44,051 nt of DNA from Chrysochromulina tobinii (GCA_001275005.1 JWZX01003181.1:1-44051); one strand, 5' to 3'; counted from the stretch's first letter, positions 1,584 to 44,051 are shown. Program-made: numbers and translations. The notes: generated from the letters alone by a model not told the origin.

Positions 1584-4500
1584 TCACAGCGTGAGAAGTC
1601 TAGATATCTCGAGCGGGAGCTCATCCCGACCCGCGGCTGTGTGCGACAACCTCGCCGCATCCAGGGCGCTCCTATCCATATCATCCTTCGTTGCAGCAGC
1701 TGCGCCAGCCTCAAGAAGCGCCATCACCGCCGCATCGGCGCCCTGATCAATGGCGTCGCTGCCGGACGCACAACGTCCACAAGGCGCCTGAGCGGACGCG
1801 GCCGCCGCCACGTGCAACGGCGTCTGCCCGAATTGATCGCGTCTGTTCGGGTCGGCCGCAGCCGCGAGCAGTAACTGAACGAGCGGCGCGGCCGCATTGG
1901 GCGGCAGGCGCGCGGCCGAATGCAGCGGCGTCTCAAGGGGCAGCGAAGTGTTCTTGCCGTGCTTGCGCGCCGACATGGGGACGCCGTTGACCGATGCGCC
2001 CGCACTGATGAGCAGCGCCGCCGCCGCGTGCTGCTGGTTCACAACCGCCCAATGGAGCGCCGTGCGATGCCACCGATCGCGCAGCTCGATCGTTGGCTCT
2101 CGTCGATTGGAAGTTCGCTCCTCACGCCCATCGTACTCGACGCCCGCCTCGATCAGCCTTCGCAGCGCACCCAGACAGCCGGCGCGCGCTGCCGAGTGCA
2201 ACGCAGTCTGCCGACGGTCATCTCGCATGGCAATAGGTGCACCTGCATCGAGCAGCAGCTCGAGCGCGCCACGGGATACATCGGACTGGGCGGCCAGATG
2301 CAGCGGCGGCAGGCCCGCTGTCGAGATGAGCGTCACGGGAGCCGACGCCCCCAGCAGTGTGTGCACGAGCGCCGTGTGCCCCGCCTGCACGGCCAAATGC
2401 AGAGGGGGTAGCCCTCGCTCGTTGAGGATAGTGTCGCCACGTAACGCGCGCGATGCCCGTGGTGCGCAGTCCGCACCAAGCGCAAGCGCCGTGCGCGCGA
2501 GCACGTCGTTGCCATAGCGCGCGGCGAGGCTGAGCGAAAGCTGCAAAGTGGGCCGCGTGAGCGTGGGATTCGTCAGCTCGGAGCTCAGGCGCATGATCTC
2601 ATCGATGAGCTCTTCCTCCTCGGCGGCGGCGGCCTCGCACGCGGCCGCCGCTTCAGCTGCGTCGAGGATCGCGGCAGCGGCGGAGTGATCCTGTTCGGGT
2701 GCCTTATGAGCCGGAGCCGCTTTGCCACGCGCCTCGACATCGGCCTCGTGTGCGGCGGGCGCTAGGGCCGCCGTCGGAGACGCAGCCTCGGATGCCGCCG
2801 CCTCGTCGCCGGGCACACACACGCCATGCTCGGCCAAGAAGGCGGCGTACCTGTAGAGCAAGGGCAATTGTAACACCGCTTTGGGAGACCACACACCGCG
2901 CAGCAGTCCGTAGTCGGCGGTGTCGACGTCCTCCTCGTCATTGCGTCGAGAGGAGGGCGCTCGCGGCGCATGTGTGCTGACCAGCGTGAAAGCGAGCTTG
3001 CGCGCCACTTGGAGGGCTCGAATGGAGTCCCCGCCGAGCCGCACAAAGTCTGAGCGCCGACCGAGGCGCTCGAGACCGAGCTTGAGTACGTCGGCCCAGA
3101 CCGCTGCGATCGCTGCCTCTAGTGGATTGAGTGCTGGGGCGGTCAGGGGCTGCGGCGGCGGCGGTGGTGGCGGCGCCCCAGCTCGCGCTACGCCCGGCGC
3201 CGCACCCAGCCGCGCCGTGTCGGGCGCATCAACCAGCCGCGCGTCCTCGGTTTTGTCGATGCGCCTGCCGGTACTCGTCGTGTCGCTGGGGGTGCCCTCT
3301 ATTCCGGCGAGGTGCGCTCGCAACATGGGCGCGAGTGCGATGCGGTCGAGCTTACCAGTAGGCGTGAGAGGCATCTTGATGACGAGCACAATCTCCGACG
3401 GCGTCACAGCCGCTGGCAACTCGCGCAGCGCATGCAATCGGAGCAGCGCCACCGCCGCCGCCTGCAGTAGCGCATCATGGCGGAGGCTGGTGTCACCGCG
3501 GCCAGCGCCGCCGCTGCCGTTCCCGCTGCCGCTGCCATTCCCGCTGCTGCTGCTGCTGCCGCACTTGCCATCAGTGGCAACGTCCTTGTCTGTCCGCCTC
3601 TCGACTGCGGCTACCAGTCGCCCGTCGATGACGAGGGCCGCCGCATGGACGACAAGTGGCTGGCAGCGCGTGAGCACCCCCTCCACCTCGCCCAGCTCCA
3701 GCCGCATGCCGTTGAGCTTCACCTGCTGATCGCGACGACCCAGCAGCCGAAGCGAAGGGGCGCCGTCAGGCGTGCATGCCCATGCCGCCACATCGCCGGT
3801 CAGGTACACACGGTAGCCGAGCGTCGGATGCTCAACGAAGCGCTCGGCCGTCAGGGCGGACTGATTGAGGTAGCCTTGCGCGAGCTGGGGGCCACCGATG
3901 GCGATCTGCCCAGTGCATGCAATCGATCCCGCCGCCTCTCTCGCGTTCGAAGCTTCCACACCCGAACCCATCGCCGGCGGCTCAATCACGCGCAGGGCAT
4001 CGTCCAGCAACAGGAGCGTACACCCGGGCAGAGGTGCACCGAGTAGTGCGCCCTGCCCATCATCAGCCACAATCGGAGCCGTGGCGACGCTCGTCACGGC
4101 GCTCGTGCGGCGCGGGGCCGTTACCTCATAAGAGCTCTGGTAGACAGTGCACTCGGTGACCCCGTAGATGTTGCACAGGCGTCGGCGGCGGCGCGTTGGT
4201 GGTCCGTGAGCCTCGTCGAGCTCCAATGCCATCCGATGAGCTCCGATGAGGTCGTCCGATGAGCTCCGATGAGCTCCGATGAGCTCCGATGAGCTCCGAT
4301 GAGCTCCGATGAGGTCGTCCGATGAGCTCCGATGAGCTCCGATGAGCTCCGATGAGCTCCGATGAGCCTCGTCGAGCTCCGATGCCCATCGAGCGATCAG
4401 CGCAGCGCTCATGCGCTCACCTCCGAGGGTGACCACCTCGAGATGTGGGAACGCGGCGGGAGATCCTCCAACGGTCGTCCAGAGCGCAGGGGTGCTGCAC

Positions 4501-5216
4501 ACGTGCGTCGCTGCTGAGGAGGCGAGAAGGGCGCCCAGGGACTCACGCACGCTCGTGCGTGACGGCAGGCAGAGTGTAGCACCCGCGAGAAGCGCGGTCC
4601 ATGCCTCGCCAATGCACGGATCGAACGACACTGCCGAAGTTAGTAGCACTCGACTCGAGGGGCCGATGGCATGCGCCACTGCGTTGGCCTCGGCATAGGC
4701 CACCAGCGAGCCCTGGCTGACGGCAACACCCTTGGGGCGACCCGTCGAACCGCTCGTGTAACACACGTACATGAGCGTGCCTCGTGCCGAAGGCGCAAGT
4801 AGCGCACGAGCCACGTCTGCACAGCCCGATGGCGACGTCAGTTGCACTGCGGATGATGCACGGCACTGCACGTGTATGATTGGCAAGGATTCCGGCAGAG
4901 CTGGTCCATGCGGAGCCACGAGCAGCATCGCCATAGCCCCAGAGTCGTTCAGCAGGTATCGCACGCGATCCTGCGGCAGCGACGGGTCCACGAGCAGGAA
5001 GGCGCATCCTGCGCGCTGCGCAATCAACTGGCAAAGCATCAACTCGGCACCCTGCTCGGCCATGATCGCGACGACTGGGCACTGCTGCGGCTGCTCAGCA
5101 GCCGCTGCTCCTGCCGCTGCTTGCAGCCGTGGAACGTAATCATCTGCAGCGTGCAGGAGCGCCTCCAGCGTGACGGACAGAGGAGAGCCGGCGGGCTGTG
5201 TGAGGTCGAGCAGCAT
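1584..5216 (-). CDS. NRPS-like protein: adenylation domain - peptidyl carrier protein - ankyrin repeats
   Basis: A-domain motifs YTSGSTGRPKGV (A3), FDP (A4), NIYGVTE (A5), GPQLAQGYL (A6), YLTGD (A7), GRRDQQVKLNGMRLELGEVE (A8), TGKLDR (A10). PCP motif FVRLGGDSI. C-terminal ankyrin repeats (GLPPLHLA x2, TALHSA, TALHWA, TPLHSA, GQTPLHVA). Possible in-frame GC-AG intron 4212-4367. Confidence 0.92.
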   Translation of the reverse strand: MLLDLTQPAGSPLSVTLEALLHAADDYVPRLQAAAGAAAAEQPQQCPVVAIMAEQGAELMLCQLIAQRAGCAFLLVDPSLPQDRVRYLLNDSGAMAMLLVAPHGPALPESLPIIHVQCRASSAVQLTSPSGCADVARALLAPSARGTLMYVCYTSGSTGRPKGVAVSQGSLVAYAEANAVAHAIGPSSRVLLTSAVSFDPCIGEAWTALLAGATLCLPSRTSVRESLGALLASSAATHVCSTPALWTTVGGSPAAFPHLEVVTLGGERMSAALIARWASELDEAHRSSSELIGAHRSSSDDLIGAHRSSSELIGAHRSSSDDLIGAHRMALELDEAHGPPTRRRRRLCNIYGVTECTVYQSSYEVTAPRRTSAVTSVATAPIVADDGQGALLGAPLPGCTLLLLDDALRVIEPPAMGSGVEASNAREAAGSIACTGQIAIGGPQLAQGYLNQSALTAERFVEHPTLGYRVYLTGDVAAWACTPDGAPSLRLLGRRDQQVKLNGMRLELGEVEGVLTRCQPLVVHAAALVIDGRLVAAVERRTDKDVATDGKCGSSSSSGNGSGSGNGSGGAGRGDTSLRHDALLQAAAVALLRLHALRELPAAVTPSEIVLVIKMPLTPTGKLDRIALAPMLRAHLAGIEGTPSDTTSTGRRIDKTEDARLVDAPDTARLGAAPGVARAGAPPPPPPPQPLTAPALNPLEAAIAAVWADVLKLGLERLGRRSDFVRLGGDSIRALQVARKLAFTLVSTHAPRAPSSRRNDEEDVDTADYGLLRGVWSPKAVLQLPLLYRYAAFLAEHGVCVPGDEAAASEAASPTAALAPAAHEADVEARGKAAPAHKAPEQDHSAAAAILDAAEAAAACEAAAAEEEELIDEIMRLSSELTNPTLTRPTLQLSLSLAARYGNDVLARTALALGADCAPRASRALRGDTILNERGLPPLHLAVQAGHTALVHTLLGASAPVTLISTAGLPPLHLAAQSDVSRGALELLLDAGAPIAMRDDRRQTALHSAARAGCLGALRRLIEAGVEYDGREERTSNRREPTIELRDRWHRTALHWAVVNQQHAAAALLISAGASVNGVPMSARKHGKNTSLPLETPLHSAARLPPNAAAPLVQLLLAAAADPNRRDQFGQTPLHVAAAASAQAPCGRCASGSDAIDQGADAAVMALLEAGAAAATKDDMDRSALDAARLSHTAAGRDELPLEISRLLTL
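4207..4380. repeat. 10-bp tandem array (GATGAGCTCC)n bracketed by an 18-bp direct repeat; candidate 156-nt GC-AG intron (minus strand)
   Basis: TGAGCCTCGTCGAGCTCC at 4207-4224 and 4363-4380 (offset 156). Interior is GATGAGCTCC repeats with two GATGAGGTCGTCC variants. Confidence 0.9.
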
Positions 5217-5239
5217 TACACTCTCTAGATTTCAGAAAA

Positions 5240-6968
5240 ATGGTCAGCTCAGAACAGTTCAAGACGCCCGCCGCGCGACTTCGCAATCTCAAGATGTGTC
5301 GCTCAATTTCGACGACTTCGAGTTCGAAAGTGTGGTTTGGGCGAGGTTTCGGTAAGTGCGGTTTGGGCTCACGGTCGTCCTCACTGACCTTGGAGGACGA
5401 CGACACGGCCGCGGACTCGTGGCTCAAGTTCTTGACGAGGAGCTTCACCGCCAATCGCCGACGGCAGGCGCAACCGTGTGACACACAAAGTGAACCCGCC
5501 TCGACACTCGAAGAGCGCCAGGCAGGGTCATCATCCACCCCAGCAGCAAGTTACAAGCGGAGCAGATCCACTCTTGTTGCTAGCCTACCAACACCGCTTG
5601 GTGCCCATGCCGGGCGCGTCGGCCTTGCCAATCTGGGCAACACATGCTTCATGAACTCCGCATTGCAGTGCCTGAGCCACACGCGGCACTTGACATCATA
5701 TTTTCTCAGTGAGGATGCCACTTGGGAGACTGAGCTGAATGTGGACAACCCGCTCGGTTCGGGCGGCGCGCTCGTGCGCGCGTACGTGGACGTCCTCAAG
5801 AGCCTGTGGTATGGCGAATACTCCCATGGGCCTATCTTCACTCCCACCCGATTCAAGCAGACGCTAGCGGACTTCTCACCGATGTTTTCGGGGAATGAGC
5901 AACACGACGCGCAGGAGCTGGCCACCTTTCTGCTCGACGGGCTACACGAGGATCTCAACCGCGTGGTAGGCAAGAAGCCGTACATCGAGGACCTGGGTGA
6001 GCTCAAAGAGGGCCCTCGATTGGTGGAGGTCGCTGATTGCATGCTGATTGCCTCCCTCATCAGGTGAGCTCAAAGAGGGGCAGGACGAGGAGCGCGTGGC
6101 CGCTGAGTCGTGGGGTAACTACCTGAAGCGCGACCGTTCGGTGATTGTCGACCTTTTCCAGGGTCAGCTCAAATCAACGGTCACGTGCACAGAGTGTGGC
6201 TGCCAGAGCAGCAAGTTCGAGGCGTTCATGTACCTCTCGCTGCCTGTGCCGCCGCCAAGCAAGGACGGCAAGTCACTCACGCTGGACGACTGCCTCCGAG
6301 AGTTTACCAAGGAGGAGCAGCTCGACCCCGAGAACATGTGGAGATGCCCCAGGTGCAAAGACTTCCGCCAGGCGAGCAAGCGCTTCGAGTTATGGAAGAT
6401 GCCGCCGCTTTTGTTAGTGCACTTGAAGCGCTTCTGTTCCAATGGGCGCGGCCAGCACGTGAAACGCGCCCAGGCGATCATCACGCCCCTTAATGGGCTC
6501 GACCTGAGCGCGTACACCGGTGGCTCGCTCGGAGTGTCCTCTGCGGCCACTTACTCGCTGTATGCGACGTGCAACCACCATGGCACCATGCACCGAGGCC
6601 ACTACACTGCACACTGCCGCGGCGCTGGGTTTGGTGGCAGCCAAGGGGACGCGGCGGACCGCAGCAAGTGGCACACATTGGACGACGGTAGGTGCCGAGA
6701 GGTGAACGCGAGCAAGGTGATCGATGGCTCAAATTACATCCTCTTCTTCGAGCGCGAGGCCGCCTTCGGGCTTCCGAGGCGGCAGACACTCAGTCGCCCG
6801 GAGCTGTGGCCCTTCCGGCTGTCGGTCATCCCGAAGGATATGCTGCCTTCGAAGGATATGCTGCCTTCCCGGCTGCGCGATAGGCAGCAATCATCCGCAA
6901 GGAGCCACTGGTACTCCTTGTTCAAGGCTTGGAGCTTTGGGGATGCTTTTTCTACTCGTAGCAGATGA
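5240..6968 (+). CDS. Ubiquitin-specific protease (peptidase C19); exons 5240-5996, 6064-6968
   Basis: Cys box GLANLGNTCFMNSALQCL, QHDAQE, zinc-finger CTEC/CPRC, LHLKRF-like VHLKRF, His box NHHGTMHRGHYTA. A 67-nt GT-AG intron joins the two ORFs in frame (1662 nt, 553 aa). Start codon uncertain. Confidence 0.93.
5997..6063 (+). other. Spliceosomal intron (67 nt, GT-AG) with 17-bp direct repeat
   Basis: GTGAGC...CTGATTGCCTCCCTCATCAG; removal restores the frame (DLGELKEGQDEE). GGTGAGCTCAAAGAGGG at 5996-6012 and 6063-6079. Confidence 0.9.
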
Positions 6969-7596: not shown

Positions 7597-8070
7597 ACGA
7601 TGAGGCTGCCTGATCGAACTACCGACAAAACCGGTAAGTTGTTTCGCCCGTAACTTTTTAACTTCCCAAGCCCTGCGAATACTTTTGGGACCGAACGCGA
7701 AATCAACCGTGGTGGATATGGAAGAGCAGGCCCTCGCGAGCCTCGAGGAGGCTTTCAACGAGCTCGACGAGAGCGGTTCAGGCACCCTGGGCATCGAGGA
7801 GTTCCAGGATCTCCTCTTCGCCTGCGGCAACACGGCGTCGCCCGACGAGGCGCAGGCCATGTTCAGGAGCATCGATTCCGATGGCTCAGGCGGAATTGAT
7901 AAGGAGGAATTCATCGCGTTCATGTGCGGTTTGAAGGACGACGAGGGAGAAGAAGTCGACTCGGCGCTTGGGTCAATGATTCTGCGAGCCCAGCTGCAGG
8001 CGAGCCTGCTTTCTCGCATGATGGCACGTCGCTTGAAGGCGGCGGCTGCTGCTCGCACCGGCGGAGTCGA
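7597..8070. repeat. Inverted duplication, right copy (partner 1-455; may extend further, left copy truncated by window)
   Basis: Reverse complement matches 1-455, with a 3-nt indel (DEGEEVDSA vs DEGEGDSA) and a divergent patch just upstream of the ATG. Confidence 0.95.
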
Positions 8071-10989: not shown

Positions 10990-11211
10990 GCTTCGGTAGA
11001 CCACAGCACCTCCGCTACATGCACAGGTGCTCGTGAAGCGCGGGCGGTTTCATGATAATGAAAAGTTCATCAGTCAAATGTGAAGTTACCCATTCCAAGC
11101 TGTTCCAGACGACCCTTCGCGAGTTGACCGATACGACGCGTACGAGCGCGGCGCCTTCCTTGACGCGAGAAGTGACGTGTGACTCCCTCGTGACGCGCTC
11201 GCGCGCCAATC

Positions 11212-14200
11212 ATGAGCGACTCGGACTCAGACGACGACGCCGTCGTGGACGCCAACGGCCTATCCGCGTACGAGCGCCAGCGGCTCGAGAACATCGAGAA
11301 GAACAAGAAAGTGCTCGAGTCGCTCGGGCTGCTGGACGGAGGTGGCAGAATGGTGCAGCGGGGTGGCGGCCCTTCATTCCAGCGCAAGCAGCAGCCGCGC
11401 GAGCCGCGCGAGCGACCTCAAGTTGAGCGGCGCGTACGCGAACAACGTTCGGTCAAGGCGCCCGAGCGGCTCGACCCGGGCGCAGATCGGGTCCGCAGGA
11501 TGCTAGCCGCCGCCGCTGCCGCCGCCGCCGCTGCTGCTGCCGAAGGAGAGCTGGTGGCGCCGCTCTTGCCAGCGCCAGCGCCAGCGTCGGGGCCCTCGGC
11601 CGCGGCTGGATCGTCATTCTCATTCGTGCCGGTGGCCAAGCGCCCGTTCGAGGGCTCTCTCGAGCGGCGCCTCGAGTTGGGTATCCCTGACGAGATTGTG
11701 TACGCCCACTTCCACAAGGTTCCGAGCGCCTTCCTCGCTAGTATCCCGGGCGCATCGGGCGCATCGGGCGCATCGGGCGCATCGGCCAAGCGGCCCTCGC
11801 CGTATGCAGTCCGTGCGGGCGTATGCGCCGCGTCGGCCAAGCTGCCGTCACAGTCCGCCGCCCAGCGCCGAAGCAAGCTTGAAGCTCTCCAGTTTACACT
11901 CCAAGCGCCCGAGTGCCCCGAGTGTGGTGGCGAGGCAACTGCCATGGAGCGCACCACGGGGCGCCAGCGCTTCCGCTGCATGGTGTGTGCGACAGAGTGG
12001 GCGGCGAACCTGTGCGGGGTGTGCGGGCAGCCTAAAAAGGGCCATGTGTGCCAGGGGCGCGGCGCCTGGGCCGGTGTGAATGCTGGTGAGCAGACTGTTG
12101 AGCAGGAGCAGCTAGGCGAGCAGCTAGGCGAGGAGCACGGAGAGGACGAGGAGGCCGAGGGCGAGGAGGCGGAGGGCGAGGAGGAGGAGGGTGAGGAGGA
12201 TGAGGGCGAGGAAAAGGATTGTGAAGATGAGGATGATGAGGAGGAGGAGGAGCAGGACGAGGGCGAGGAAGAGGACGAGGCGACGCGCGCGCCCCCCAAG
12301 AAAGGCGAGCGCCTGCAGATCTTCTACGAGGGCACCGGCGGTGGCTGGTATTGGGGGAAAGTGCTATCCGCCAATAAGCTCAGAGGCAAGGGAAAGGTGA
12401 CCACTACCGAGAAGCCCGAACGCAAGTCGGCGGGCGGGCGTAAGTCGGACGGCCCAGGAGCGTCTTTCCCCACAGCGTCTTTCCCCGAGGCGCATCGTCT
12501 CAAATGCACGCTGCTCATGGAGGCCACGGAGTGGGATGGCGAGGTTGAGGACGGCCCGTTCGACATGACCTTGGTTAAGTGGAGGCGCACGTTGCCCAGG
12601 GCAGATGCCAAGGCTGCAGCCAAGGCCAAGGGCGAGGCCAAGGCGGCGGCCAAGGCGGCGGCCAAGGCGGCGGCCAAGGTGGTGGCTAAGGCGGCGACCA
12701 AGGCGGCGCGCGCGGCATGCTCCGCGTGTCAGGGTTCGCACAAGGCTCACACGTGTGGCCGCCGGGGCTACCAGCGCCACAGGCAGTGGGCCGCGGGCGA
12801 GGACGAGGACGAGGGCGAGCACGAGGACGAGGACGAGGAGGAGAAGGATGCGACTGCCGGAGTGCCGTCCCCAGTGCGGGCTGGGGGCGACGGCGTGTGG
12901 CGCGATTTGGAGCTTCTCGTTCCAGCGAGCCTACGCGCCGACCGCAAGGTAGCCTTCCTGCATGATGGCGTGCGTTACTCGGCCACGGTCCCTGAAGGTC
13001 TCGAACCCGGTACCGTCTTCCTAGCCAGAGTCGCCATCAAGCCGCAGCTGTCTCTCGAAGCGCCGCCGCCCGCGGTCACGCCAGCTGAGTTTGTGAGCAA
13101 CGCGCGGCGCGCGGCGCGGCTCAAACGCAAGCACACGGAGTTCAAGCGGACGGGCGTTTTCCAACGGCTGCGCGCCGCTGCGCTGGCTGCGGAAGCAGTG
13201 GAGCGCGAGGCGGCCGAGGAGGCCTTTGCGCGTGGGGAACCAGGAGCGCGTGTCATGTGGGCCCACGAGCCCATGGTGATCCCGGTGGGCAGGCAGGTCG
13301 CTGGCGAGGGGGCGCACGCGCGCCGCCTCGGCCGTGCTGCTTGGGCAACGTCGTCGTCGCGGCACGGCCGCCAGTGGGTTGAGCTCGACGGTGAGCAGGG
13401 CGAAGAGGAGGCCGAGGAGGAGGTGCGCGCGGAGCTTGAAGCGGAGGCGGAGGAGCGCCGGCAGGCAGACTTTGCGAGCTGGCTACCCAAGCCAGGCTCG
13501 ATCCGTGCAGCGATCATCGAGGCGCTTCGAGAGGGAATCTGCGACCGAGATGCGATCTGCGACTTTGTGTCTCTCCAGCCGGAGGTGCAGGAGGCGCACC
13601 CGAACAAGTCGACCCTCCGCGCGACGATCGTGACCACGCTCGGCAAGGAGAAGAATAGCAAGGTGCCCCTGTTTGAGCAGGAGGACACGACATATCCACT
13701 CACCCGCGAGGGGCGGCTCGCCCTCGGCCGAGCAGAGGACGACGATCTCGACGATTGGAAGACGGCCGGCCTGGCCAGCTCGCCTGGCGGCAAGCGCGAC
13801 GATTGGAAGACGGCCAGCTCGGCCAGCTCCCCTGGCGGCAAGCGCCGCGGCGGCGCCAATAGCGGCCGCGCACGCGTCGAGGCGCCCGAGACGTCGCCGT
13901 CCGGGGAGGCCAGCAACGCGCCTCTTCTCGTGCCGCCGCCGCCGCCGCCCGCCCACTGGCAGTTTCCAATCAAGGGCGAACGCATTGAAGTCGAGGTAAG
14001 TTTGGGCGATACGACGGCGTGGGTGACGGCCGAGGTACTGACCATCCTCTTCGACGGCACCTTCCAGGCGCGCATTGAGCTGCCCGACCTGTCGGACAGG
14101 TGGGAGGATTGGTTCACGTGGCAGGAGGAGGGCACCGAATGGCGCCGTCGGGAGGAATGGAAGTCGCGCCCGCCACCCAAGAAGTGGAAGTGGCTGAACG

Positions 14201-15804
14201 AGGGCGATAGGGTCGAGGTTGAGATTCGCGTGGGCGAAGGCGACGAGGCAGCTGGTGCGTGGGTGACGGCCGAGGTGCTCACCGTCCTCATCGACGGCAC
14301 CTTCCAGGCGCGCATTGAGCTGCCCGATGGATCGGACCAGTGGGAAGACTGGTTCTCGTGGCAAGAGGAGGGCACCGAATGGCGGCGCGAAAAGACCGAC
14401 AAGAAAAGAAAGACTGAAAAGAAAAGAAAGCCACCGCCCGACGACTGGGTGTGGCTGCTCGAGGGCGAGAAGATAGAGGTCGAGGTGGCGGCGGGGGAGG
14501 ATGCGCCGCCTGCGTGGGTCAAGGCCAAGGTACTGGCCGTTCTCATCGACGGCACCTTCCAGGCGCGCATTGAATTGCCCGATGGATCGGACCAGTGGGA
14601 AGACTGGTTCTCGTGGCAAGAGGAGGGCAAGGACTGGCGCCGACGTACATTGGACGCGTGGCAGCTCCACCTAGAAGCGCGGGAGGCATATCAACGGCCC
14701 GCGAACCCCTCGGAGCTCTTTAGCAGTCTCGCGGCGCGCATTTCCGAGCTGAAGCGCGCTCTCGAGGACGACGCGGATGAGGTCGACGGCTGGTACCTCT
14801 GCTTCAAGCTGCGCAAGAAAACGGCGCAGGGCGCACGCCAGGGCGACATCAACGTCATCGACCCCCTCGACGGCGAATCGTTCCATTCACTCATAGCCAT
14901 CCGGCGCAAGCTTGGACTAGCTGCGGAGGAGGAGGGCGGCGAGGGAGTGCCGAGCCCGAGCAAGCACGACGCGCCTCAGGGCAGCAGCGGCGAGGCCGTT
15001 CGAGTCCTGCACGGCGCTCCGCTGGAGATGCCCCCTGGATGGGTGGGAGTGCGCCATGCCGCACCTTCGGGAACGTATACCACCTACGAGGGCCCAGGGG
15101 GCAAAAAGGCGCGCTCGCTGAGGGAGGCGTGGCGCGAGCACGAGGGCCTACCGCCGCCGGCCAAGCGATCCAGAGAAGAGGCTGATGCGGATAGGGAGAC
15201 GACCGTTGCGCAGAGTGCGCCAGTCGAGGAGCTGCCACCGGCGGTGGCGTCCTCCAACTCGCCAGCCCGCAAGGTTCCCAAGCGCGACAAGTGGCCCAGT
15301 AAGCCTCTGGGGTACCCCTCGCTGCAGCCGGGCGAGGCTCTAGTGCCGGGCGTGATGGCGGAGGCGATCATGCACGAAGAGGGACTCGAGGGCAGCCGCT
15401 TCGTGGTCGACGTCCTCGAGTTGCGCGGCAAGGGCGCCAAACGCGAGGCGTACGTGCAGTACCACGCCCTCTTTGACGAATTCCCTGTGGGTTCGGACGA
15501 AACTGACGAAACCTCTCTTGAAGAGCCGCCCTTGCTGCGCGAGTGGGTGAGCGCCACCGTACTGAGGCCGCCGCCGCCGCCGCCGCCGCCCGGCTGGCAT
15601 CGCAACCTCAAGACTGGCGACGCGGCGGAGGCGCAGCATGAGGGTGGCTGGTGGCAGGTCACTGTCCAGTCTCGCCTTCCAGGCAACGCGCGCCTTCAGG
15701 AGCCCCCCAGATTCGTCATCGAGGCCACCGGGTACGGCGTGCGGCGCACCGTGGAGATGCACACCTTACGACCGCCCTCCGACAAGGTGCAGTCGGTAGA
15801 TTGA
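11212..15804 (+). CDS. Large multidomain chromatin-associated protein (Zn fingers, acidic tracts, three Tudor-like repeats, MBD-like, C-terminal Agenet)
   Basis: 1530-aa open ORF. LSAYERQRLENIEKN motif; CxxC clusters; three GE.IEVEV...W..AEVL...DGTFQARI...WEDWF.WQEEG repeats; PPGW...YEGPGGKKARS (MBD-like); EEGLEGS...LRPPPP...GDAAEAQHEGGWWQVTV (Agenet). Confidence 0.8.
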   Translation: MSDSDSDDDAVVDANGLSAYERQRLENIEKNKKVLESLGLLDGGGRMVQRGGGPSFQRKQQPREPRERPQVERRVREQRSVKAPERLDPGADRVRRMLAAAAAAAAAAAAEGELVAPLLPAPAPASGPSAAAGSSFSFVPVAKRPFEGSLERRLELGIPDEIVYAHFHKVPSAFLASIPGASGASGASGASAKRPSPYAVRAGVCAASAKLPSQSAAQRRSKLEALQFTLQAPECPECGGEATAMERTTGRQRFRCMVCATEWAANLCGVCGQPKKGHVCQGRGAWAGVNAGEQTVEQEQLGEQLGEEHGEDEEAEGEEAEGEEEEGEEDEGEEKDCEDEDDEEEEEQDEGEEEDEATRAPPKKGERLQIFYEGTGGGWYWGKVLSANKLRGKGKVTTTEKPERKSAGGRKSDGPGASFPTASFPEAHRLKCTLLMEATEWDGEVEDGPFDMTLVKWRRTLPRADAKAAAKAKGEAKAAAKAAAKAAAKVVAKAATKAARAACSACQGSHKAHTCGRRGYQRHRQWAAGEDEDEGEHEDEDEEEKDATAGVPSPVRAGGDGVWRDLELLVPASLRADRKVAFLHDGVRYSATVPEGLEPGTVFLARVAIKPQLSLEAPPPAVTPAEFVSNARRAARLKRKHTEFKRTGVFQRLRAAALAAEAVEREAAEEAFARGEPGARVMWAHEPMVIPVGRQVAGEGAHARRLGRAAWATSSSRHGRQWVELDGEQGEEEAEEEVRAELEAEAEERRQADFASWLPKPGSIRAAIIEALREGICDRDAICDFVSLQPEVQEAHPNKSTLRATIVTTLGKEKNSKVPLFEQEDTTYPLTREGRLALGRAEDDDLDDWKTAGLASSPGGKRDDWKTASSASSPGGKRRGGANSGRARVEAPETSPSGEASNAPLLVPPPPPPAHWQFPIKGERIEVEVSLGDTTAWVTAEVLTILFDGTFQARIELPDLSDRWEDWFTWQEEGTEWRRREEWKSRPPPKKWKWLNEGDRVEVEIRVGEGDEAAGAWVTAEVLTVLIDGTFQARIELPDGSDQWEDWFSWQEEGTEWRREKTDKKRKTEKKRKPPPDDWVWLLEGEKIEVEVAAGEDAPPAWVKAKVLAVLIDGTFQARIELPDGSDQWEDWFSWQEEGKDWRRRTLDAWQLHLEAREAYQRPANPSELFSSLAARISELKRALEDDADEVDGWYLCFKLRKKTAQGARQGDINVIDPLDGESFHSLIAIRRKLGLAAEEEGGEGVPSPSKHDAPQGSSGEAVRVLHGAPLEMPPGWVGVRHAAPSGTYTTYEGPGGKKARSLREAWREHEGLPPPAKRSREEADADRETTVAQSAPVEELPPAVASSNSPARKVPKRDKWPSKPLGYPSLQPGEALVPGVMAEAIMHEEGLEGSRFVVDVLELRGKGAKREAYVQYHALFDEFPVGSDETDETSLEEPPLLREWVSATVLRPPPPPPPPGWHRNLKTGDAAEAQHEGGWWQVTVQSRLPGNARLQEPPRFVIEATGYGVRRTVEMHTLRPPSDKVQSVD

Positions 15805-30563: not shown

Positions 30564-31058
30564 AGTGGGGTAAAGCTCTCATGTACGTGTACATGTAAAA
30601 TGAGTGCGTTCACAGTCTGAAGGGTTTATGAATTCACCAAGAGGACCTCCAAGCTCCACAAGGACGACCCCGGCGGTACAGGGACTGCACATTAAGATAG
30701 CGATCGCCCACCGCAGGCGCCAGCTTTTCCCAGGAGTCGATCGAGGACCCCGGGGCCCTCCCACCCCAACCACTCTCAGTAAGACAGCGGGCCGGCGGTA
30801 CAAAGCCAAGGGTTTCCAACTCAAAGCGAGTTTCGCACAGGTTCACGCTCATTCCGTTTTTGCAGGTGAATGTTGCTCCTTGGCTGTGAACGCGCTGACT
30901 CTTTTCGAAAAAGCATCCAGCGCTCTTGCGGCCCCTCGAAAAATGATGATGATGTGTGAAAACATTCACTTGCGTCTGTGCGTTGTTAACCGCATCCGTA
31001 TGTACGCCGGTCCGGTGTCTTGGGTGTCGAATTCTAAACATTGGCTGTGTGAACGGTC

Positions 31059-33545
31059 ATGTCGGCCGCCGCGGCGGTGCGGGCAGCGCGGCCCTTGGTC
31101 GTGTGCACCGTCTTCTTCGGGCCGTTGCCGCCGTGGCTACCAATCACATTGCACTCGATGGCGGCCAACGATCGTGTCGATTTCATCGTCGTTGGCGACG
31201 CTCCACCGCCATCGGTGCTGCCGCCGAACGTTCGCTTTGAGACGATTGCGTACACAGCCATGCAGGCGCGGCTGACGCAGCTCACGGGTCGGTCCGTGGT
31301 GTACACGAATACGTACAAGGCCAACGACATCAAGCCGTTGCTGCCTGCGCTCTATCCTGAGGCCATACGCGGCTACGAGTGGTGGGGATGGGCTGATCTC
31401 GACGTCATCTTCGGCGACTTGCTCAAGTTTGTCGAGCTCGCGCTGGCGCAGCCCGCGTGCTGCCGCGGCCTCGAGTACGGGTGCACCAAGCGTGCGTGGC
31501 GCGATCCGCGCTCCCCGTGCTTCAACTCGTCGCGCGGTCGCGAGCCTGCGGACACCTACGGCGACCGTGACTCGTGCCGGTGCCGCGAGGGCGAGAGGGT
31601 GACGGCGATCTCGCCGCTGTACCCGAACCCGTGGCGCAAAAAGTGCTGGGGCCCCTTCACGCTGTTCCGCGTGTCGGCGGGCGCGCGCCTCTTCGAGGAG
31701 ACTCCCAAGTGGCGCGCCGCCCTTGCGACGGCCGAGTACACGCACTTCGATGAGTGGTGGGGTCCGTTTGTGCAGCAGGGCTTCGAGTCGATGGGCGACG
31801 TGATGACCCGCCTGTCGGACGAGGGGCGGCTGGTCATGTCGCGCGCACGGCTGCCGTTCTCCGAGGCCAAGTCGTGCGTCGACATCGAGTGCACGTTTTG
31901 CCCGTGTGGCGCCACGCGTTTCGTGTTGCGGGGGCGCACCCTCACGGTCAACGATGAGGAGAGCATGATCTTGCACCTTGCTGAGGCTAAGCCCGCATGG
32001 CTCACGCTTGCCGCGAACGCTGCCGCCGGTGCGGGCGGCAGCGCTGGCTGGCGCGTGCCTGCGTACGCGCCCGGCCAGCCGAGCTGCTTCGAGGTGAGTC
32101 ACCTCGGTCTCTATGCCGCCGACGCCGCGCTCCGGGCGGTGGGTAGTGCCATGCTACACGCGGCGACGCGCTACGAACGGCATCGGCCTGTCTCGGACCA
32201 CGCGGCCGCCGCCCTCGTGTACCCTAAGCACAACGCCACCGCCGGCGGCGGACTCGACCCCAAGGCAAGTCAAGTCAAGGCAGTCGGCTCGCCGCGCCTC
32301 TCCGTCCTGCCGTGCACCTTGGACCGCTTGGAGGCCTCGCACGCCGCGGCTGGTCCTGGCGACGGCACGCACAGCAGGGGCAGCGGCAACGGTGGCAGCG
32401 GCAACGGTGGCAGCGGCAACGGTGGCGTGATGGTCGCGGCCGCGGCCGCGACGCCCGGAACGACGCCCGATGCTCACACGCGTCGTACCGGGCACGCGAC
32501 GCCCGGAGCTCTAACGGCTCTAACGGCTCTAACGGCTCTAACGGCTGCTCGCGCCGCGCTGCGTGATCTCCATGCCAGGTACGACGCGTATACGGGCGCC
32601 GAGCGCTTGCGCACCCTCGCGTGGCTGTGTGCCTGGGAGAGACTCTCCACTGACTACAACGAGTCCTTGGAAGGCGTCGACCTGAGCGCGCAGGGCGCGC
32701 GCCGCCTGCCGCTGCTCTTCGGCAACCGGCGTGTTCGCTTCGGCTTGTACGGCGGCGAGCGGGTCGGCTGGTGGCGCCAGACGGTGAACACGAGCGTCGC
32801 CGCTGAGGAGGGACCGGTGCCGGCACTGCGGCCCGATCGGTGCGCCCTCGCGGGCGCTTGTGGCGGCGCGTGCGGGGCACAGCCCATGCCGTGTGCGGTC
32901 CGATCGGCGCCGATGTGCGTGCTCTGCAGCGCCTCGGGTGCGCGCCAGGGCCGCAAGCGTGCTGGACGAGCGCCACTTCGGATACACGGCCGGCGGCTCA
33001 AGGCGCGCCGCGCGACCGTGTACGACTTGAAGGGTCCGCCCATCAAGGGCGTGCCCTGCCTGCCCGAGGTGGTGGAGGACGATCCCCTAGACGGGCGCAC
33101 AGGCAGCGGCGCCCAAGACGGCGCGAGCCCTACCGAGGTGCAATCTCGACTCGCCGAGGTGCAATCTCGTCTCGCCGAGGTGCAAGAGCGAATCTTCGAC
33201 GCGTACCTGCAGCTGCAAAAGGTTCAGCGCGACGAGCGCGCGCGCACCCGCCGCTGGATGTGCTCGTGGCTCTACAAGCTCAAGGCGTGCGACGACGCGG
33301 AGGCTTTGCAGCGCCGTCTTGGGCGCCGGCCTTCCGAGGGGCCTCCCGAGGGCGCCGTCTTGGGCGTCTCCACACGCTTGGTGGCACTGGCCGCGCCCGT
33401 GACGACGCGTCGCTGCCGCCGCATCGCGCCACCCGACCACGCGGTCAGTACGGGCGATCCCGCGCTCGGGTGGGGTGGGCTGCACGTGCCGCAGCTCAAC
33501 TCGACCGCGATGAACGCGCTGCTCTTTCGCTTTCGATGCTGGTGA
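31059..33545 (+). CDS. DUF6625-like (putative glycosyltransferase-related) protein with long C-terminal extension
   Basis: FFGPLPPWL...S...N..VDF, YKANDIKP, YEWWGWADLDVIFGDL (DxD), GPFTLFR, FDEW. Confidence 0.7.
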   Translation: MSAAAAVRAARPLVVCTVFFGPLPPWLPITLHSMAANDRVDFIVVGDAPPPSVLPPNVRFETIAYTAMQARLTQLTGRSVVYTNTYKANDIKPLLPALYPEAIRGYEWWGWADLDVIFGDLLKFVELALAQPACCRGLEYGCTKRAWRDPRSPCFNSSRGREPADTYGDRDSCRCREGERVTAISPLYPNPWRKKCWGPFTLFRVSAGARLFEETPKWRAALATAEYTHFDEWWGPFVQQGFESMGDVMTRLSDEGRLVMSRARLPFSEAKSCVDIECTFCPCGATRFVLRGRTLTVNDEESMILHLAEAKPAWLTLAANAAAGAGGSAGWRVPAYAPGQPSCFEVSHLGLYAADAALRAVGSAMLHAATRYERHRPVSDHAAAALVYPKHNATAGGGLDPKASQVKAVGSPRLSVLPCTLDRLEASHAAAGPGDGTHSRGSGNGGSGNGGSGNGGVMVAAAAATPGTTPDAHTRRTGHATPGALTALTALTALTAARAALRDLHARYDAYTGAERLRTLAWLCAWERLSTDYNESLEGVDLSAQGARRLPLLFGNRRVRFGLYGGERVGWWRQTVNTSVAAEEGPVPALRPDRCALAGACGGACGAQPMPCAVRSAPMCVLCSASGARQGRKRAGRAPLRIHGRRLKARRATVYDLKGPPIKGVPCLPEVVEDDPLDGRTGSGAQDGASPTEVQSRLAEVQSRLAEVQERIFDAYLQLQKVQRDERARTRRWMCSWLYKLKACDDAEALQRRLGRRPSEGPPEGAVLGVSTRLVALAAPVTTRRCRRIAPPDHAVSTGDPALGWGGLHVPQLNSTAMNALLFRFRCW

Positions 33546-42729: not shown

Positions 42730-44051
42730 CTATGCCATCTGCTTCAGCACGTAGACATTGAGGTCGGTCATGTCGTAAGCGCCCAGCTGGTTTAGCAAGG
42801 TCTTCTTCTCCTGCTCGCTCGCCACGACCTTCTCCACCTTGAACTGCGAGTTGGGCGGGAAGAGCACCTCCTCCTCGCTCGGTTCTGCCGAGAAGTGGCG
42901 GATGTCTTTGCCGGTGATGGAGTCGATGACGAAAATTGACCCCGAGAGCTTGCGCCCGGATGTGTTGACGAAAACGAGCGTCGCCATCTGATTCTTGGTC
43001 GAGGACGAGAACGCCTGCCACGTGATCCGCTTGCCGGGCGCGTAGACATCGGGATTGAGAAGGCCCTTGATGCCCCGAAAAACCTTGCCATGCATTTCAC
43101 TCACATGCGTCGGCAGGCTGCTTAGAGCTCTCTCCATGTGCACTATATAGTCTGCGTAATGCTTGAGCTCGGTGTCGGTCGGTGTGCTCGGGGTGTGAGG
43201 CGTGCGCATCGTGTAGTTGAGCGTCCCGTAAAGTGGGGACTCCTCCGTATAGGCGAAGAGGGCGGCTGCGTGTTTAGGGGCGAGCGGCGTGGGCGACGTG
43301 ACTGCCTTAGCACGACCGGCATCCATGATCTCTCTGACGTGGGGTTCACTGTGCCCAAAGCGAGCGATCGCCTCGGGCACATCCAGCGTCACCTCGAAGC
43401 CTTGTGGCACAAAGTTGCGCGACCCAGCAGCAGGCGCTTCAAGGCCGTCTGCCCATCGCTTCACACGTGCGACTGGATACTCGGAGACGTTGAGGCTCGC
43501 AGCGACTACTGGCGTCACCTTGCGGAATATATTGTTGTGACGATGGTACAGGATGACCAGGGCGAGGACAAGGACGATGATGACGCCGATGATGACGCCG
43601 ATGATGATGCCCGTTGAGCCGCTGGTCTCAACCGCCGATGCACCGGTCGACATGGGTGGAGGTGGCATGAGTGGAGGTGACATGGGCGGAGGCGGCGATG
43701 GTGAAGGCGGTGGTGGCGGTGAGACGTCCGCGATGGTGGGCAGCGTCACGACCGCGAGCACGACGATCGAGACGCCGGTGACGCTCGCGAGCATGGCGGT
43801 CGCGCTGCTCAGGCTGCTCGTCGCGCTGGCCATCGTCGACTGCACCGCGGCCGCCATCGCCACGATTGTCTGGATTCTCACGTCGGCGATGACGCTACCT
43901 GGCGATATGTCAACTCGACCGCCGATGGGTCCACGCCCGCGCGAACCGCTAATGCACTCTGCATCTGGGTCTGCACGCTCGGTGTGAATGAGGAGACGTC
44001 GCCGGCGAGCTCGAGGGTGAATCCGACCATGCTCATCGCCGGCGGCGAGGG
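42730..44051 (-). CDS. Membrane-anchored ADP-ribosyltransferase (ARTC, R-S-E type); 5' end outside window; apparent 1-nt frameshift near 43907
   Basis: ALFAYTEE..LY..LN..MR, VFRG, WQAFSSST, DIRHFS..PSEEEVLF; TM GIIIGVIIGVIIVLVLALVILY; Pro-rich stalk. Upstream frame gives VGFTLELAGDVSSF...GVDPSAVELT/(fs)SPGSVIADVRI. Confidence 0.85.
   Translation of the reverse strand, partial: LAAGDEHGRIHPRARRRRLLIHTERADPDAECISGSRGRGPIGGRVDISPGSVIADVRIQTIVAMAAAVQSTMASATSSLSSATAMLASVTGVSIVVLAVVTLPTIADVSPPPPPSPSPPPPMSPPLMPPPPMSTGASAVETSGSTGIIIGVIIGVIIVLVLALVILYHRHNNIFRKVTPVVAASLNVSEYPVARVKRWADGLEAPAAGSRNFVPQGFEVTLDVPEAIARFGHSEPHVREIMDAGRAKAVTSPTPLAPKHAAALFAYTEESPLYGTLNYTMRTPHTPSTPTDTELKHYADYIVHMERALSSLPTHVSEMHGKVFRGIKGLLNPDVYAPGKRITWQAFSSSTKNQMATLVFVNTSGRKLSGSIFVIDSITGKDIRHFSAEPSEEEVLFPPNSQFKVEKVVASEQEKKTLLNQLGAYDMTDLNVYVLKQMA

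Follow-up and report, generated by a model that had tools for sequence, protein, structure and literature searches.

A single-module adenylation, carrier and ankyrin-repeat protein of Chrysochromulina tobinii belongs to an orphan algal family

The 44,051-nucleotide stretch JWZX01003181.1 from Chrysochromulina tobinii, the whole of which we call the window, encodes on its minus strand, at positions 1584..5216, a protein of 1210 residues that joins an adenylation (A) domain of the non-ribosomal peptide synthetase (NRPS) type, a carrier (PCP) domain and an array of ankyrin repeats. We regard it as nearly certain that this is a real and single A-PCP-ankyrin gene. The copy in the window stands as a typical representative of a family that is widespread in algae yet an orphan: its layout is already catalogued, and it is only the function that is unstudied. 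For that function we propose, tentatively, a docking-and-hand-over mechanism.

Results

One gene with three parts

The listing of open reading frames (ORFs) gives, at this place, a single unbroken ORF of 1210 codons, the longest in the region, which an in-frame TGA six codons 5' of the ATG closes upstream. At E <= 1, the Pfam scan of its product reports seven families, namely AMP-binding, PP-binding and five ankyrin families; the condensation, thioesterase, reductase and PQQ families are absent from the protein at this threshold. The AlphaFold2 model, which covers residues 11-1210 and was built on a 12-row alignment, has a mean predicted local distance difference test score (pLDDT) of 69.8 and a predicted template modelling score (pTM) of 0.47. 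Its folded parts are the core and C-terminal subdomain of A, the PCP with its four helices, and a confident ankyrin solenoid. The main parts are as follows, with the evidence for each in brackets.

1584..5216, minus strand: whole coding sequence, apparently a single exon, with its stop at 1584-1586 (ORF list; end-to-end colinear homologues)
3327..5114, minus strand: NRPS-type adenylation domain, core and C-terminal subdomain, aa 35-630 (Pfam, NCBIfam, PDB, Foldseek, motifs)
3135..3326, minus strand: A-PCP linker, disordered, aa 631-694 (pLDDT < 50 at model residues 631-683)
2826..3134, minus strand: carrier (PCP) domain, aa 695-797 (Pfam PP-binding, LGGDSI, four modelled helices)
2688..2825, minus strand: PCP-ankyrin linker, Ala- and acid-rich, disordered, aa 798-843 (pLDDT < 50 at model residues 796-841)
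2580..2687, minus strand: single long helix before the ankyrin array, aa 844-879 (model residues 834-869)
1587..2567, minus strand: ankyrin array, aa 884-1210, capped at the N-terminus, with six canonical repeats and one degenerate repeat at the C-terminus (Pfam, motifs, model)

An initial annotation of this DNA, written from the sequence alone, had announced complete adenylation motifs, an intact GGDS site, at least six ankyrin repeats and the lack of any condensation, thioesterase or reductase domain. All of this stands: motifs A3, A4, A5, A7, A8 and A10 are all located by pattern, the carrier site is LGGDSI at 727 with Ser731, the array holds six canonical (P/A)LH repeats plus one or two degenerate ones, and Pfam at E <= 1 finds none of the three domains. 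The same annotation had named two findings that would speak against it, a cryptic catalytic domain in the PCP-ankyrin linker and a separation of the A-PCP and ankyrin parts into two genes. The linker has no Pfam match and no folded or catalytic domain in the AlphaFold2 model, where it is disordered and followed by one helix; the separation into two genes is opposed by the domain order of homologues and by an RNA contig that spans the junction (X11, below).

AMP-binding and Ank occur together in 10 of the 120 matches listed, always in the same order and in one frame, over at least four named genera. Members of this layout include the Joint Genome Institute (JGI) Chrysochromulina model 'Chrpa1', Prymnesium parvum AB1Y20_022085, a protein of Polarella glacialis, and P0113, which is a Polykrikos kofoidii TRINITY transcript; the 'Chrpa1' model, P0002, describes this same gene and is 98-99% identical to the window protein. 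Two other listed matches, P0009 and P0011, are A or A-PCP fragments, and the remaining 108 all have a condensation domain, those that are named being bacterial NRPS. The homologues align colinearly with the window protein over its full length, and metagenome loci L001-L005 preserve the A-PCP-ankyrin order in their DNA wherever both parts are present. The suggestion, made in the initial annotation, of one A-PCP-ankyrin protein in algae is thus borne out by a layout that is conserved across haptophytes and dinoflagellates.

Six RNA runs contain 40-59% of the sampled words of the locus, and RNA-library contigs cover the gene piecewise. The contig at 2289-3014 (X11) begins three residues past the PCP serine, crosses the linker and reaches the ankyrin repeats; X12, which comes from another run and lies at 2908-3181, spans the PCP and overlaps X11. 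On the 5' side of the gene the contigs end at 5215-5221, which is 0-5 nt upstream of the ATG. The depth drops in the intergenic bins, at 1501-1667 (0.4, 0, 0, 0) and at 5175-5341 (1.0-1.3), and the contigs over 1584..5216 contain no credible splice joint. Because these contigs are of low depth, and because the libraries may hold DNA, we grade the gene as probably transcribed.

The JGI model P0002 differs from this single exon: it excises as an intron approximately residues 516-598 of the C-terminal A subdomain (window 3423-3671, minus strand). This block is retained in all 9 other aligned homologues, and two RNA contigs pass its 5' edge unspliced; we therefore judge the intron of P0002 to be wrong.

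Could the layout be an artefact, with neighbouring A-PCP and ankyrin genes read through in a GC-rich genome? The GC content of the window is 56-69%, long ORFs are common at 60-68% GC, and the PCP-ankyrin linker is disordered and its sequence is not conserved among homologues. However, the one-frame order in the 10 listed homologues, which span no fewer than four named genera and include a transcriptome assembly, the RNA-library contig that joins the neighbourhood of the PCP serine to the ankyrin repeats, and the order preserved in the DNA of L001-L005 where both parts lie on the locus make such a reading barely credible.

The adenylation domain and its relatives

The Pfam match to AMP-binding has an E-value of 1.5e-39 and 136.4 bits, against a cut-off of 29.9. 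The best NCBIfam match is TIGR01733 (AA-adenyl-dom), with 251.7 bits; two low-complexity inserts interrupt this match and keep it below the cut-off of 317.4. DltA-type models are also matched, at 112 and 108 bits, and the Lys2 model TIGR03443 obtains merely 82.1 bits against a cut-off of 1030.1. By sequence, the nearest solved structures in the PDB are LgrA (9e-81) and GrsA PheA (1amu, 1.2e-31). Foldseek, run with the AlphaFold2 model, places LgrA, EntF, Thr1, CytC1, GrsA PheA and DltA at the top (E 1e-24 to 7e-30), and both comparisons support the two-subdomain fold of an A domain. The following motifs were located by pattern.

aa 153: A3, YTSGSTGRPKG
aa 198: A4, FDPCIGE
aa 263: TLGGE
aa 349: A5, NIYGVTE
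aa 471: A7, YLTGD
aa 493: A8, GRRDQQVKLNGMRLELGEVE
aa 616: A10, PLTPTGKLDR, with the A10 lysine present

These core motifs are retained in the homologues, save in truncated sequences and where the pattern misses.

A FastTree tree was computed from 199 A domains, 11 from the family and 188 from bacteria, cut by motif patterns, so that domains missed by the patterns are absent; it leaves out P0002, the model from the same species that lacks the excised block, and P0007, which has no A3. All 11 family members lie on one side of a branch whose Shimodaira-Hasegawa-like support is 100, and this tree does not resolve which group is their sister (support 54). Both in the tree and among the 120 matches listed, bacterial NRPS modules supply the A domains that come nearest to the family.

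In a first alternative, the family would be the algal counterpart of animal AASDH/ACSF4-U26 and would activate beta-alanine, with the beta-propeller replaced by ankyrin repeats. The initial annotation saw a resemblance to AASDH in the motifs FDP..GE, LGGE and NIYG.TE. The two share a common logic: a single NRPS-type module in which A and PCP are followed by a non-catalytic repeat domain, with no condensation, thioesterase or reductase domain. The repeats differ, forming a PQQ-like beta-propeller in AASDH and an ankyrin solenoid here. None of the 120 listed matches carries a PQQ-type family, although proteins of the size of AASDH fall within the lengths searched, the best listed matches outside the family are bacterial modules of the condensation-adenylation-thiolation (C-A-T) type, and the PQQ repeat is absent from the window protein at E <= 1 in Pfam. 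We rate this alternative as quite improbable. The acceptor of AASDH is likewise unknown, and a post-translational modification has been suggested for it (PMC10531068).

A specificity code of its own

The ten positions of the specificity code read DPGCTGIVYK in the window protein. They were set by the GrsA numbering, which we take to be 235, 236, 239, 278, 301, 330, 331 and 517 for the residues D, P, G, C, G, V, Y and K that are common to all 11 members, and the family code is DPGC-x-G-x-VYK. As a control, the same columns return DFWNIGMVHK in 11 bacterial domains and DILQLGLIWK in 4, presumably the textbook codes for Thr and Gly. To our knowledge, the family code matches no known code. Since the equivalents of Asp235 and Lys517 are kept, the substrate would have an amino group and a carboxylate; since the pocket has no charged residues (P, G, C, T, G, I, V, Y), its side chain would be neutral. 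Judging from these residues, the substrate of the A domain is probably an amino-group-bearing acid with a neutral side chain.

The invariance of the code matters for a second alternative, in which the protein would be a trans-acting A-PCP loading module that provides a large polyketide synthase (PKS) or NRPS with a starter or extender amino acid, and the ankyrin array would dock it onto this megasynthase. Several observations fit: 'monofunctional, probably trans-acting' PKS and NRPS domains are fused to repeats in Symbiodiniaceae (PMC6361889), dinoflagellates have FabD-like acyltransferases with ankyrin repeats (PMC8283056), the Chrysochromulina tobin genome contains a hybrid PKS/NRPS (PMC4580454), and bacterial NRPS modules have the A domains closest to the family. 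An A-PCP didomain of the same fold is found in PA1221 (PDB 4dg9, Foldseek E 2.2e-24), a loader for trans enzymes. However, bacterial stand-alone loaders of this kind lie within biosynthetic clusters and have no ankyrin domain, whereas no biosynthetic cluster appears among the 16 window ORFs scanned, and no PKS or NRPS gene stands in the 44-kb window or beside the relatives. Within the lengths searched, the ankyrin domain is found only with A-PCP and never on ketosynthase, acyltransferase or condensation domains. A code that is invariant over haptophytes and dinoflagellates is also a better fit to a housekeeping role than to lineage-specific toxins. On balance, a loading module is unlikely.

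An algal family already on record

The window protein has the features by which we delimit the family: the domain order, the clade, the code, and the blocks RDRWHRTALHW and KH.K.T.LP.E.PLH. The ESM Atlas holds a eukaryotic cluster of 66 members, automatically named 'Ligase/ankyrin repeat fused protein family', and a eukaryotic AMP-binding+Ank cluster of 60 members. Fusions of monofunctional NRPS and PKS domains with HEAT, ankyrin or PPR repeats are frequent in Symbiodiniaceae (Beedessee et al. 2019, PMC6361889): these dinoflagellate fusions are of the same kind and occur in an ecologically related group, and Polarella and Polykrikos have members in the family. In the portion of that paper at hand they receive one sentence and no function, whereas here the family is delimited, reaches the haptophytes, and has a conserved code and an integrated PCP. 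The genome paper of Chrysochromulina tobin, for its part, reports a failure to find any stand-alone NRPS pathway in that genome (PMC4580454, in the portion at hand). Our literature search, with the supplements of the dinoflagellate papers outside its scope, found no functional study of an A-PCP-ankyrin enzyme. To call the system undescribed, as the initial annotation did, is thus too strong, given the Atlas clusters, the JGI model P0002 and the mention in PMC6361889.

The carrier domain and the ankyrin array

The PP-binding match covers residues 702-741 with 28.3 bits, against a cut-off of 20.8. The phosphopantetheine serine, Ser731, lies in LGGDSI (727-732) and is encoded at 3024-3026; the serine of GG(D/H/G)S is conserved in 11 of 11 aligned sequences. 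The model places the four helices of the PCP at residues 688-700, 721-734, 768-773 and 777-786; helices 2 and 3 are separated by an insert of some 20-30 disordered residues (model residues 742-760).

Five ankyrin families exceed their Pfam cut-offs, Ank_2 with 1.4e-24 and Ank with 4.4e-20 among them. The canonical (P/A)LH motifs begin at aa 938, 971, 1005, 1053, 1097 and 1133, with a degenerate one at 1184, and the model shows paired helices over residues 874-1199 with pLDDT of about 85-94. Within the array, one segment stands out.

1887..2234, minus strand: best-conserved ankyrin stretch, aa 995-1110, a candidate binding surface (per-residue identity in 9 homologues)

It contains MRDDRRQTALHSAARAG, ELRDRWHRTALHWAV and KH.K.TSLPLETPLHSAARL, and the same blocks were selected as family patterns. 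The middle three repeats rank second in conservation, behind the A domain only.

Outside the family, neither the ankyrin-region search nor the representative search finds close relatives of this ankyrin domain. The first returns 413 proteins at E <= 0.001, the family first and then generic multi-ankyrin proteins (NOMPC, ANKRD52); the second returns 576 proteins at E <= 1e-30, mainly giant ankyrin proteins, with about 20 single-stretch family members or fragments among them. Pfam, applied to 15 proteins of the representative search, reveals a sole additional domain, Methyltransf_16, in P0261.

Relatives fused to a methyltransferase

In P0261, of 523 aa, the ORF runs from the ankyrin repeats on into the Methyltransf_16 domain (Pfam, E 2.4e-13). 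A second protein, P0378 (744 aa), differs from it in source and contig, starts within the PCP and continues through the linker and the ankyrin array to a C-terminal region. Both are 64% identical to the ankyrin region of the window, they fall in one 90% cluster, and their C-terminal regions differ by few residues. Among solved structures, a 244-aa stretch of P0378 matches METTL21B (5.9e-06) and also METTL21D, METTL21C, CaM-KMT and eEF2-KMT, and it aligns with protein-lysine methyltransferases at the motifs GAG (GxG) and DVVY (DxxY-type). From this thin sequence evidence, one lineage would have (A)-PCP-ankyrin-METTL21-like in one polypeptide. The Atlas offers further leads: eukaryotic Ank+Methyltransf_16 clusters of 58 and 66 members, whose commonest phylum is Apicomplexa, and an arthropod 'ACBD6' cluster of 61 members with ACBP+Ank+Methyltransf_16.

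These relatives, together with the conserved centre of the array, bear on a third alternative: an Ebony- or DltA-like ligase for small molecules, whose acceptor would be an amine, an alcohol or a lipid head group, reached spontaneously or through an unlinked enzyme, while the ankyrin array localises or regulates. The algae that have the family are rich in unusual osmolytes and betaine lipids. The DltA-type NCBIfam matches agree with this alternative, and single-module A-T enzymes often make small conjugates, Ebony giving beta-alanyl-amines (PMC10531068). Ebony itself, like Lys2/CAR/ATRR, is a eukaryotic stand-alone, single-module NRPS-like enzyme in which an A domain is combined with an integrated carrier. 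However, Ebony ends in an AANAT-like condensation domain that selects the amine, and Lys2/CAR/ATRR in an NAD(P)H thioester reductase; neither is found here, and Pfam and the model give no catalytic acceptor domain of any kind. Moreover, the best conserved region outside the A domain is the ankyrin centre, which argues for a specific macromolecular partner, and the methyltransferase fused in the relative belongs to a protein-modifying family. We therefore hold a small-molecule ligase to be unlikely.

Discussion

A tentative mechanism of docking and hand-over

The mechanism that we put forward, with a confidence that stays short of even, would have three steps. The A domain would adenylate one amino-group-bearing acid; the acid would be thioesterified on Ser731 once the PCP has been phosphopantetheinylated; and the central, best-conserved ankyrin repeats would hold a trans-acting transferase or an acceptor protein, at which the arm would give up its aminoacyl group. 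We favour a role directed at proteins because a related lineage fuses the PCP-ankyrin module to a METTL21-like protein-lysine methyltransferase. The idea of the initial annotation, that the ankyrin array recruits a protein acceptor or a trans-acting enzyme, finds circumstantial backing in the fusion of P0261 and P0378.

The model for this proposal is ACBD6, with the difference that the donor would be made by the protein itself and covalently tethered. ACBD6 joins a part that carries an acyl thioester to ankyrin repeats, which dock the transferase that uses the donor; the PCP and the ankyrin array would be the counterparts here. ACBD6 has far fewer ankyrin repeats than the window protein. It also has an N-terminal acyl-CoA-binding (ACBP) domain, of which Pfam finds none here, and the donor here would come from the protein's own A domain and sit on its PCP: the comparison is one of analogy, not of homology. 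The ankyrin domain of ACBD6 binds N-myristoyltransferase (NMT) to give an active complex, which uses the acyl-CoA on the ACBP domain (PMC9775454), and the arthropod ACBP+Ank+Methyltransf_16 clusters run parallel to the PCP-Ank-Methyltransf_16 relatives, a parallel to be taken only as a lead.

Several points weigh against docking and hand-over. The ankyrin repeats could act in localisation or regulation alone. The neighbouring genes offer no hint of a partner: neither in the window nor in L003-L005 are they related or in synteny. Just two sequences, from one 90% cluster, show the methyltransferase fusion, at the protein level only; the search found no longer A-PCP-Ank-methyltransferase form, which is weak evidence, and neither the window nor any of 11 related loci has a methyltransferase domain after the ankyrin array. 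The Atlas scores, 0.89-0.92, were obtained with part of a protein, a case for which the tool gives no calibration. The closest code among the 188 bacterial domains agrees at no more than 6 of 10 positions. Finally, TIGR01733 stays below its cut-off, the two low-complexity inserts might impair this copy, and the RNA evidence consists of low-depth contigs from libraries that can contain DNA.

A more specific form of docking and hand-over would be a non-ribosomal aminoacylation of proteins, in which one specific, self-charged amino acid is moved to a lysine of the target held by the ankyrin repeats, perhaps a chaperone or a translation factor such as those that METTL21-type enzymes methylate, and in one lineage this would occur alongside a lysine methyltransferase acting on the same target. 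We consider this form improbable, and the interest of the family would rise sharply if it were true: with a protein as acceptor, the reaction would be a new kind of post-translational modification, performed by NRPS chemistry. The lineage-specific fusion to a protein-lysine methyltransferase provides a concrete starting point in the search for the acceptor.

Haptophytes and dinoflagellates are dominant marine primary producers. They have kept this enzyme with a substrate pocket that is near-invariant in the members examined, which points to a conserved, uncharacterised piece of algal biochemistry. Like animal AASDH, the A-PCP-ankyrin protein is an NRPS-type loader without visible unloading, and the identification of a partner could explain both families.

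Other features of the window

Low-complexity inserts

Two low-complexity inserts, which the initial annotation does not mention, interrupt the A domain of the window copy, and a proline run follows it.

4206..4361, minus strand: 52-aa in-frame insert, aa 286-337, between TLGGE and NIYGVTE (10-nt tandem repeat)
3486..3572, minus strand: Gly/Ser-rich low-complexity loop, aa 549-577, in the C-terminal A subdomain (hexamer repeat at 3506-3562)
3153-3173, minus strand: run of seven prolines within the A-PCP linker (pattern)

The 52-aa insert is encoded by an array of the 10-nt repeat that the tandem repeat finder places at DNA 4218-4394, and pLDDT is below 50 across model residues 271-332, the region of the insert. 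The insert is absent in 14 of the 17 close sequences examined, including the P0003 type, which is 92% identical, and in all the distant homologues that were aligned. Four non-zero alleles are known, +26 (P0391), +42 (L001), +52 (the window and L002) and +64 (P0002) aa, and all are in frame despite the 10-nt repeat unit; L001 was retrieved by ankyrin patterns, a retrieval that is blind to the frame at the repeat. The dinucleotide GT is absent from the coding strand throughout 4190-4400, and a canonical intron is therefore unable to excise the insert. The duplicated ELDEAH flank offers cuts at AG|GC, and a GC-AG intron there stays formally possible. Most likely, the insert is a translated, disordered loop on the surface of the protein.

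In the Gly/Ser-rich loop, pLDDT is below 50 at model residues 534-564, and the length at this site varies across the family alignment. An RNA joint from 3175 to 3544 was judged an artefact: its shorter side is 20 nt long, its ends are CC..CG, and its flanks are of low complexity.

Neighbouring genes and repeats

One relative needs a remark. At L003:6928-10475, the A core lies in one frame and the A subdomain, PCP and ankyrin repeats (P0122) in another that overlaps it, which implies that this organism has either an intron or a frameshift here; P0122 thus does not consist of ankyrin repeats alone. The 13 ORFs scanned in L003-L005 include no shared neighbour.

The window ORFs include a hydrolase of the ubiquitin C-terminal hydrolase (UCH/USP) type, an EF-hand protein, a kinase, a serine carboxypeptidase, an ABC transporter and an NAD:arginine ADP-ribosyltransferase (ART) domain. 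The upstream neighbour of the A-PCP-ankyrin gene, at 5204-6965 on the plus strand, is a divergent UCH/USP gene. Its Pfam domain is split across two frames near 6048-6064, and an intron is thus suggested. The first ATG of its ORF, at 5240, is 23 nt from the A-PCP-ankyrin ATG, at 5216; since the RNA-library contigs of the UCH/USP gene begin only at about 5376-5399, its real start is probably further in.

These two genes are flanked by the arms of an inverted repeat, 1-353 and 7715-8070, which are 95-97% complementary and 7.4-7.8 kb apart, and which duplicate the 5' part of the EF-hand gene. The left arm reaches the start of the window and may therefore be longer. Elsewhere, an ORF with the ART domain (1.5e-19) occupies 42733-44049 on the minus strand, at or near the window end; an open frame of 1536 codons at 11194-15801, plus strand, gives no Pfam match at E <= 1e-4; and a frame of 830 codons at 31053-33542, plus strand, carries an N-terminal DUF6625.

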